A DNA stretch of 289 bases from Escherichia coli (GCF_003334385.1 NZ_QOWN01000213.1), one strand, 5' to 3'. Shown: positions 1 through 289, counted from the stretch's first letter. Notes: a model not told the origin generated them from the letters alone. Made by a program: numbers and translations.

Positions 1-1
1 C

Positions 2-77
2 TGGTGGGTCGTGCAGGATTCGAACCTGCGACCAATTGATTAAAAGTCAACTGCTCTACCAACTGAGCTAACGACCC
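2..77 (-). tRNA. tRNA-Lys, anticodon UUU, complete 76-nt gene with encoded CCA
   Basis: Reverse complement of 2-77 reads GGGTCGTTAGCTCAGTTGGTAGAGCAGTTGACTTTTAATCAATTGGTCGCAGGTTCGAATCCTGCACGACCCACCA. It folds as a canonical cloverleaf: acceptor stem GGGTCGT/ACGACCC, D stem GCTC/GAGC, anticodon stem GTTGA/TCAAT, anticodon loop CTTTTAA with anticodon TTT (plus-strand 42-44 = aaa), variable loop TGGTC, T stem GCAGG/CCTGC with T loop TTCGAAT, and 3' CCA at plus-strand 2-4 (tgg). From memory it is identical to the E. coli tRNA-Lys(UUU) gene family. The paralog cannot be named from the sequence alone; lysZ is possible if this is the lysY-lysZ interval. Confidence 0.97.
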
Positions 78-111
78 ATACGGGTGTTACCTGAAAGATT
101 TTTACTCGGGG

Positions 112-128
112 CCAATCTTTAAGATTGG
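112..128. other. Inverted repeat / hairpin ccaatct-(tta)-agattgg that overlaps the CCA of the orphan tRNA fragment
   Basis: 112-118 ccaatct is the reverse complement of 122-128 agattgg, giving a 7-bp stem with a 3-nt loop (the pairing could notionally extend to 8 bp but that leaves a 1-nt loop). On the minus-strand transcript the orphan CCA is the 5' strand of this stem. Function not established. Confidence 0.45.
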
Positions 129-143
129 TGGGTCGTGCAGGAT
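126..143 (-). repeat. Orphan 18-nt duplicate of the tRNA-Lys 3' end (part of T loop, 3' T stem, 3' acceptor strand, discriminator and CCA) inside the inter-tRNA spacer
   Basis: Plus-strand 126-143 tggtgggtcgtgcaggat is an 18/18 match to 2-19 and 224-241. Identity stops abruptly at 144 (gactc versus tcgaa in the genuine genes). No 5' acceptor strand, D arm or anticodon arm is recognisable upstream of it on the minus strand, so it is not a functional tRNA. Confidence 0.75.
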
Positions 144-157
144 GACTCGCTTCGCTC

Positions 158-184
158 GCCCTACGGGCCGTTGCTGGCGCAACG
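158..184. other. Two adjacent short GC-rich hairpins in the spacer: gccc-tac-gggc (158-168) and cgttgc-tggc-gcaacg (169-184)
   Basis: Read directly from the sequence: a 4-bp stem with 3-nt loop, followed by a 6-bp perfect stem with 4-nt loop. Neither is followed by a T/U tract on either strand. They are probably structural elements of the polycistronic tRNA precursor. Confidence 0.4.
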
Positions 185-197
185 TTATCCTTCACGC

Positions 198-220
198 TTA
201 ACATCTGAGTTTGATGTTAA
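198..220. other. AT-rich inverted repeat ttaacatc-(tgagttt)-gatgttaa, an 8-bp perfect stem with 7-nt loop, 3 nt downstream of the 3' CCA of the upstream tRNA-Lys copy
   Basis: 198-205 ttaacatc is the exact reverse complement of 213-220 gatgttaa. On the minus-strand transcript the hairpin starts 3 nt after the CCA of the 224-289 copy. No U-run follows, so it is not an intrinsic terminator. It is a candidate trailer-processing structure. Confidence 0.45.
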
Positions 221-223
221 AAC

Positions 224-289
224 TGGTGGGTCGTGCAGGATTCGAACCTGCGACCAATTGATTAAAAGTCAACTGCTCTACCAACTGAG
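224..289 (-). tRNA. tRNA-Lys, anticodon UUU, second copy truncated by the window edge (tRNA nt 11-76 present; 5' 10 nt would lie at 290-299)
   Basis: Positions 224-289 are 100% identical to 2-67, and position 223 equals position 1. The D stem/loop remainder, anticodon arm (TTT), variable loop, T arm, acceptor 3' strand and CCA are all present. Only the 5' acceptor strand is missing because the window ends. The repeat period is 222 bp. Confidence 0.93.

Follow-up and report, generated by a model that had tools for sequence, protein, structure and literature searches.

The window, by which we mean the whole 289-nt stretch of DNA analysed, is very probably Escherichia coli chromosomal DNA from the lysT operon, and consists of two identical tRNA-Lys(UUU) genes separated by a spacer that carries a module of the RtT type, which would behave as a mimic of the tRNA end at the RNA level and as a set of recombining repeats at the DNA level. 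Neither the region nor the repeat family is new: the first is a textbook E. coli tRNA operon, and the second, which goes back to the tyrT work of 1981-1991, has a curated entry in Rfam. No description of RtT units in the lysT operon was found in the literature searched.

A complete tRNA-Lys(UUU) gene with an encoded CCA was identified on the minus strand at positions 2-77 by ARAGORN and the Rfam tRNA model; it holds the position of lysZ in K-12. The second gene, at the lysY position (224-289, minus strand), is represented by tRNA positions 11-76, its 5' end being cut by the window edge. ARAGORN made a single call in the window (tRNA-Lys, anticodon ttt, minus strand 2-77) because the right-hand copy lacks its first 10 nt and only one gene is complete, and the Rfam tRNA model scored 79.2 bits at 5-77 and 54.7 bits at 227-289, the latter match being flagged as 5'-truncated by the window edge. 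Positions 1-67 and 223-289 were returned by the repeat finder as a direct repeat with 100% identity and a spacing of 222, and an exact repeat of 67 nt within 289 bases is far above chance expectation. Both copies have the K-12 tRNA-Lys sequence, with positions 2-77 identical to all of the lysT/W/Y/Z/Q genes, and the spacer between them occupies 78-223 (146 nt). A sequence-only reading made beforehand had described two head-to-tail tRNA-Lys(UUU) copies on the minus strand with a 222-bp period, on which ARAGORN, Rfam and the repeat finder agree, and had given the identity of 1-67 with 223-289 and the extent of the spacer exactly as the repeat finder did. The ARAGORN check that it proposed recovered the gene at 2-77, but the truncated second copy was seen by Rfam only.

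Positions 2-289 form an exact substring of the K-12-like chromosome NZ_CP026361 (locus L001 2501-2788), where the match takes in the sixth gene of a tRNA cluster (lysZ) together with the 146-nt spacer and, read in window orientation, the initial 66 bases of the fifth gene (lysY). This cluster (tRNA-Lys, Val, Lys, Val, Lys, Lys, Lys) lies between cpoB and nadA and is the lysT operon, and an annotated 'RtT sRNA' follows its last gene. Megablast matches were present in all 5,426 complete E. coli genomes, with 33,797 of the 33,808 matching places on chromosomes. The arrangement of valZ-lysY upstream, lysQ downstream and cpoB/nadA as flanks was seen in the matching genomes, although window base 1 disagrees with the trailer between lysZ and lysQ in K-12. 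The assignment to the lysY-lysZ interval made from the sequence alone was therefore right, since positions 2-289 are exact at this place between cpoB and nadA, and the spacer length of about 146 bp that it gave is also correct, the K-12-type interval being identical. The same reading had called the window an ordinary, highly conserved core region; the ordinary chromosomal location stands, but high conservation of the spacer does not, as a 98-nt unit within it is missing in about one-fifth of genomes.

The spacer has two parts. A 48-nt core (78-125, minus strand) is the 5' leader of the downstream tRNA and makes up the whole spacer in short-spacer strains such as KOr019. The remainder (126-223, minus strand) is a 98-nt unit of the RtT family, known first from the tyrT operon; it is a short variant and starts right behind the CCA of the upstream tRNA (lysY). 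At its far end, positions 126-143 repeat the terminal 18 nt of tRNA-Lys exactly (ATCCTGCACGACCCACCA) and make up a pseudo tRNA 3' end. The repeat finder detected this partial tRNA 3' end inside the spacer as a second direct repeat (119-143 against 217-241; 25 nt, 92%, spacing 98), which extends approximately 7 nt past the CCA. The unit and its pseudo tRNA 3' end had been overlooked when the spacer was treated as featureless, and reading it as a plain spacer is wrong: PGAP places the label 'RtT sRNA' only after lysQ and leaves four more units in the operon spacers unlabelled.

The RtT model (Rfam RF00391; gathering threshold 45 bits) scored 47.6 bits on the window and, in the genome context, 54.4 bits, in alignments where a part of the upstream tRNA fills the 5' third of the model. 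On the spacer alone it scored 41 bits over model positions 46-130, which is below the threshold because the short variant is without the 5' third of the model. The full-length RtT body (model positions 1-45 with two 5' hairpins, and the Tpr frame) is absent from the 98-nt unit, in which GGAUGAG... is replaced by GGAUAACG, hence there is no ATG. As expected by position for an RtT element, the unit lies directly downstream of a same-strand tRNA and ends with the 3' end of that tRNA including the CCA. RF00391 also matched all four long spacers of the lysT operon and the region after lysQ, and long Lys-type RtT variants are found elsewhere, for instance after lysQ in K-12 and in Erwinia. A Tpr-like reading frame is kept at window positions 102-182 on the minus strand (RQQRPVGRAKR, compared to RRQRPEGRSAQR of Tpr, the protamine-like peptide of the tyrT repeat); the Tpr ATG is lost (GGATGAG to GGATAAC), leaving only a TTG start.

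Other functional readings of the window were considered and set aside. The open reading frames of 20 aa or longer pass through tRNA or unit sequence and the Tpr-like frame has no Tpr ATG, so a coding role was rejected. No promoter-like site was found in the window. Two terminator-like hits fell on the non-transcribed strand, one of them being the internal hairpin of the unit, and an internal terminator was rejected. Plus-strand Rfam hits (Plastid-ycf2 and similar) were far below their thresholds and antisense to the tRNA, and were also rejected.

Folded alone, the 98-nt unit reached -32.7 kcal/mol (z = -3.5), and none of 200 shuffled sequences was as stable. The predicted fold, on the minus strand, begins with a 9-bp hairpin directly behind the lysY CCA (197-221; UUUAACAUC paired with GAUGUUAAG). 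This is followed by a closing stem, in which the 5' strand CGUG-A-AGGAU (187-196) is paired, except for one A·G mismatch, with the 3' strand AUCCU-G-CACG (134-143). Enclosed by the stem are three small hairpins, CGUUGC-GCCA-GCAACG (169-184), GCCC-GUA-GGGC (158-168) and GC-GAA-GC (149-155), and the unit finishes with a free tail, ACCCACCA (126-133).

Compensatory changes across Enterobacterales support this fold. A scan of GTDB, with one genome per species, for pseudo-ends not preceded by the real T-loop base gave at least 120 loci, nearly all in Enterobacterales. Among the matches listed there were 191 pseudo-ends, and every one of the 167 that had a same-strand upstream tRNA followed tRNA-Lys(UUU); the other 24 comprised 21 at locus edges with RtT bodies and three at chance level in unrelated MAGs. 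These last three, exact 19-mer matches outside Enterobacterales (L019, L048 and L081; cyanobacterial, Planctomycetota and Rhodobacteraceae MAGs), had neither a tRNA nor an RtT body and were rejected, being at chance level for a 298-Gb scan. Unit lengths among the matches listed fell into classes of approximately 100, 150 and 175 nt. From these matches, 43 distinct units of about 100 nt from many genera were aligned, and RNAalifold returned the same four-helix consensus, with 99.1% of cells paired compared to 28-44% when the partners were slid. Six pairs showed double-sided changes (21 cells), a level reached by none of 500 shuffles. Four of the six pairs in the hairpin at 169-184 have double-sided changes in other genera, and the hairpin at 149-155 appears in other copies as GGC-GAA-GCC, GAC-GAA-GUC or GGCC-AAA-GGCC. 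The trailer hairpin (197-221) is common to the lysW and lysY trailers and to other genera, between which its changes are double-sided and compensatory. The closing stem cannot covary within the Lys alignment, because its 3' strand is the search pattern. Published covariation work on the RtT family points in the same direction (PMC8250186).

The unit is polymorphic in E. coli. With the window as the query, 4,272 of 5,426 genomes matched at 80% coverage or more and the rest peaked at 72%, the value expected for a 48-nt spacer; approximately 21% of complete E. coli genomes are without the unit at the slot between lysY and lysZ and have a 48-bp spacer there. The four long-spacer slots measure 35, 51, 48 and 33 nt in strain KOr019, which equals the K-12 spacers minus a 98-100-nt unit; all four units are absent, and the breaks fall precisely at the CCA on one side and at the end of the pseudo-CCA on the other. 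Strain 19SZHZ663Rt is missing only the unit between lysZ and lysQ. The long K-12-type trailer at that slot occurs in only 1,775 genomes, the unit between lysY and lysZ (4,272) being commoner, and in the Lys/Val operon a unit can occupy five slots, each of them filled or empty independently, both among E. coli strains and among genera. Judging by these genomes, the RtT unit is dispensable.

The orthologous slot between two lys genes is long and has an exact pseudo-3'-end in Enterobacter, Kluyvera, Silvania and Pseudenterobacter loci and in Escherichia sp. ESNIH1, and the Enterobacter, Kluyvera and Silvania copies have the same type of trailer hairpin too. The same slot in Klebsiella pneumoniae is 146 nt long and approximately 82% identical to the window spacer, without an exact pseudo-end. 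Its presence in other genera indicates that the unit at this slot is old, and we infer that the short E. coli form arose most simply by precise deletion, or by conversion by an empty copy, across the direct repeat of 18-25 nt. Downstream of lysQ in NZ_CP026361 (L001 2106-2292), a 36-nt terminator (ATGTAAAAAAGCGCCCTAAAGGCGCTTTTTTGCTAT) occurs twice and brackets the long RtT unit that PGAP labels 'RtT sRNA', so that terminator and tRNA 3' end together form a 54-nt direct repeat on either side of this unit. In three other E. coli strains (L002-L004), a single terminator without a unit is found downstream of lysQ. The natural polymorphism of these units, and of the 222-bp blocks described below, provides isogenic-like material for asking whether RtT modules act.

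Processing of the operon has been described in K-12 (PMC4176162). The whole seven-gene operon is one transcript of approximately 1,100 nt, which RNase P divides into its tRNAs by cleavage at every mature 5' end, beginning near the 3' end and moving backwards; in window coordinates the RNase P cut falls at the 77/78 boundary (PMC4176162). As RNase P cuts at mature 5' ends, the 146-nt spacer stays on lysY as a 3' trailer. The long spacers remain on the Lys pre-tRNAs in this way until they are removed by RNase II and PNPase, with RNase T finishing the 3' end, and RNase E cleaves within the spacers only if RNase P is impaired (PMC4176162). The same study treated the spacers simply as trailers for degradation; it reported no stable spacer species and did not mention the repeat.

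Within this scheme, the lysY and lysZ tRNAs of the window are transcribed from right to left (window coordinates) in one polycistronic precursor, and 98 of the 146 trailer nucleotides are an RtT copy that starts after the CCA and ends with the last 18 nt of the tRNA. By analogy with the rtT RNA of tyrT, the module may be a structured, relatively nuclease-resistant and CCA-ended by-product of processing, a putative mimic of the tRNA end, and it is probably not needed for the production of tRNA-Lys. On the DNA, the direct repeat of 18-25 nt formed by the real and the pseudo tRNA 3' ends would permit precise loss or re-copying of the 98-nt module, and the identical 76-nt tRNA genes would permit unequal recombination that adds or removes whole 222-bp units of tRNA plus spacer.

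It is possible, although we consider it doubtful, that the spacer unit has no role at the RNA level and is neutral, a DNA relic left when the tRNA 3' end and trailer were partly duplicated in tandem long ago, and that it is carried along in the transcript only to be degraded. The unit is dispensable, being absent at this spacer from the one-fifth of strains noted above and at all four slots in KOr019, the K-12 processing study needs no role for it (PMC4176162), and the direct repeat reaches past the CCA, as a tandem duplication would leave it. Since strains without any unit are common, this explanation keeps substantial weight. Against it, the three hairpins maintain their pairing across genera through double-sided substitutions, and the same body is found on Tyr-specific ends at tyrT, which suggests a constraint on the RNA or on a single-strand fold and not free decay.

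A more far-reaching form of the mimic interpretation, which is speculative and rather improbable, is that RtT-type units are a module templated by tRNA ends that spreads from one tRNA gene to another, taking on a copy of the local tRNA 3' end by gene conversion seeded at the shared AUCCU/T-arm, and whose RNA is an uncharged CCA-ended mimic that buffers 3'-processing enzymes or feeds into stringent-response signalling. If this were true, the naturally filled and empty slots of the operon in E. coli would already supply the material for a genetic test.

The first base of the window (position 1, minus strand) is the first trailer base behind the left-hand tRNA and the only base that differs from K-12. 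It reads C in the window, which is G on the transcribed strand, where lysZ of K-12 is followed by A. This G matches the 'GTTTTAAC' trailer found after lysW and lysY. A K-12-type junction between lysZ and lysQ carrying the G was absent from the complete E. coli genomes (n = 5,426; best match 99.6%), and a simple SNP of the K-12 trailer at that junction was rejected, as it was found in no complete genome. A synthetic junction in which the tRNA is placed between a lysY-type trailer on the left and a lysZ-type leader on the right was instead found as one perfect piece (233/233) in strain cM8a. The operon of cM8a has eight tRNAs (KVKVKKKK) and two successive 222-bp periods, that is, one extra unit, and a single SNP, at another position, separates its relevant copy from the window. 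The extra unit suggests that a 222-bp block was gained by unequal recombination between identical tRNA genes. Taken by its sequence, window base 1 fits a strain with one more 222-bp unit, in a lysY-lysZ'-lysZ arrangement as in cM8a, and not the K-12 lysZ trailer.

It is also conceivable, although fairly unlikely, that base 1 and the odd ends of the window are an assembly or consensus artefact over a collapsed tRNA-Lys repeat and that there is no real extra tandem unit. The full 289 bases were not found exactly in the four E. coli loci compared, the first 150 bases had no exact match in the metagenome collection, and the G variant of the junction between lysZ and lysQ occurred in no E. coli genome. 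Two K-12 trailers behind tRNA-Lys start with G, so a collapsed repeat could yield base 1. Against this stands cM8a, a real genome that contains exactly the base-1 junction as a single piece. In the laboratory strains Stbl4 (NZ_CP081009 4534145-4534423) and Origami2-DE3 (NZ_CP084529 4661784-4662039), a match to tRNA-Lys plus spacer adjoins genes for replication protein O/P or hypothetical proteins near the end of the record, and these matches may be an engineered insert or a misassembly. Copy number of tRNA-Lys and spacer length at the lysT locus are unreliable in short-read assemblies.

An origin of the 98-nt unit as the scar of an integrative element, which would have inserted at the tRNA-Lys 3' end, duplicating it as an att site, and then been reduced by decay to about 100 nt, is very unlikely. 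The unit resembles attL/attR at tRNA genes: the inserted segment sits precisely at the CCA end, has a direct repeat of the tRNA 3' end on both sides and is polymorphic in its presence. Unlike the att-site duplications left by integrative elements, however, the segment is merely 98 nt long, and neither integrase or cargo genes nor remnants of them were found in these 98 nt between the repeated tRNA 3' ends; there is no intact ORF, and the short ORFs are without credible starts. The same conserved, structured body also occupies many slots within co-transcribed operons and, with an end specific to Tyr, is found behind tRNA-Tyr; viral contigs are essentially free of the pattern.

A phage or plasmid tRNA cluster as the source of the window, the context that the sequence-only reading had named as evidence against itself, is extremely unlikely and was rejected, for although the spacer matches some records filed as plasmids or phages, these are chromosomal-type sequences of 0.1-5 Mb, non-mobilizable records or Salmonella chromosome contigs, the E. 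coli matches lie almost entirely on chromosomes, and the lone hit in the viral-contig collection is a host operon of the valU type. The spacer search gave only two matches in the phage collection, both to Salmonella chromosome contigs, and 19 non-mobilizable records in the plasmid collection, mostly chromosome-sized (0.3-5.4 Mb). When 2.9 million viral contigs were scanned for the hallmark of the RtT unit, one hit was obtained, in a Val-Val-Val-Lys operon of host type. This contig (IMGVR_UViG_2663763280_000003 of IMG/VR; L127 4612-5165) carries a Val-Val-Val-Lys cluster of the valU-operon type with a pseudo tRNA-Lys end 156 nt later, and looks like host DNA inside a viral call.

Compared to the lysY-lysZ interval of K-12, the window is identical in 288 of 289 bases and shares the tRNA sequence, the 146-nt spacer and, in matching genomes, the gene order; it differs in the G, for A in K-12, after the downstream tRNA on the transcribed strand. 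The closest known counterpart of the unit itself is the RtT RNA (rttR), which corresponds to the 178-bp repeats of the tyrT operon (Bösl and Kersten, 1991, as cited in PMC3318445). In both, a unit lies behind a same-strand tRNA gene and ends with a copy of the 3' end of that tRNA including the CCA. They share a homologous core (AACGUUGC..GCAACGGCCCGNAGGGCGA..GCGAAGC..GAGU.AUCCU) and the same closing-stem logic, and the arrangement tRNA-unit-tRNA corresponds to tyrT-RtT-tyrV. The Lys unit differs in its length (98 nt compared to approximately 130-178 nt), in being without model positions 1-45 and the Tpr ATG, and in its terminal 18 nt, which are Lys-specific and not Tyr-specific.

The tyrT locus of NZ_CP026361 consists of tRNA-Tyr, RtT and tRNA-Tyr, followed by three further RtT units at 178 bp. 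The Lys unit can be aligned with these Tyr units over approximately 65 nt (AACGTTGC..GCAACGGCCCGNAGGGYGA..GCGAAGC..GARTMATCCT), beyond which each ends in the 3' strand of its own tRNA. Between the Lys and Tyr closing stems, one pair is compensated (U-A compared to G-C) and one is left as A·G. In Phytobacter massiliensis (L083 13406-13508), one Lys unit has GUGCAGGAU instead of the near-universal GUGAAGGAU in the 5' strand of the closing stem, a change that removes the A·G mismatch with the tRNA-Lys end. The A normally found at this place looks like a carry-over from a Tyr-type ancestor (GGGAAGGAU). Photorhabdus (L005 5581-7344, L033 8830-10255) has arrays of up to nine tRNA-Lys pseudo-3'-ends with a period of approximately 175 bp, a Lys counterpart of the 178-bp repeat array of tyrT and much larger than any in E. 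coli.

Transcribed spacers of tRNA operons can have functions of their own, as the 3'ETS of leuZ is an sRNA sponge. The Lys unit would resemble the leuZ 3'ETS as a functional analogue only, both being spacer RNAs released as by-products of the processing of a tRNA operon.
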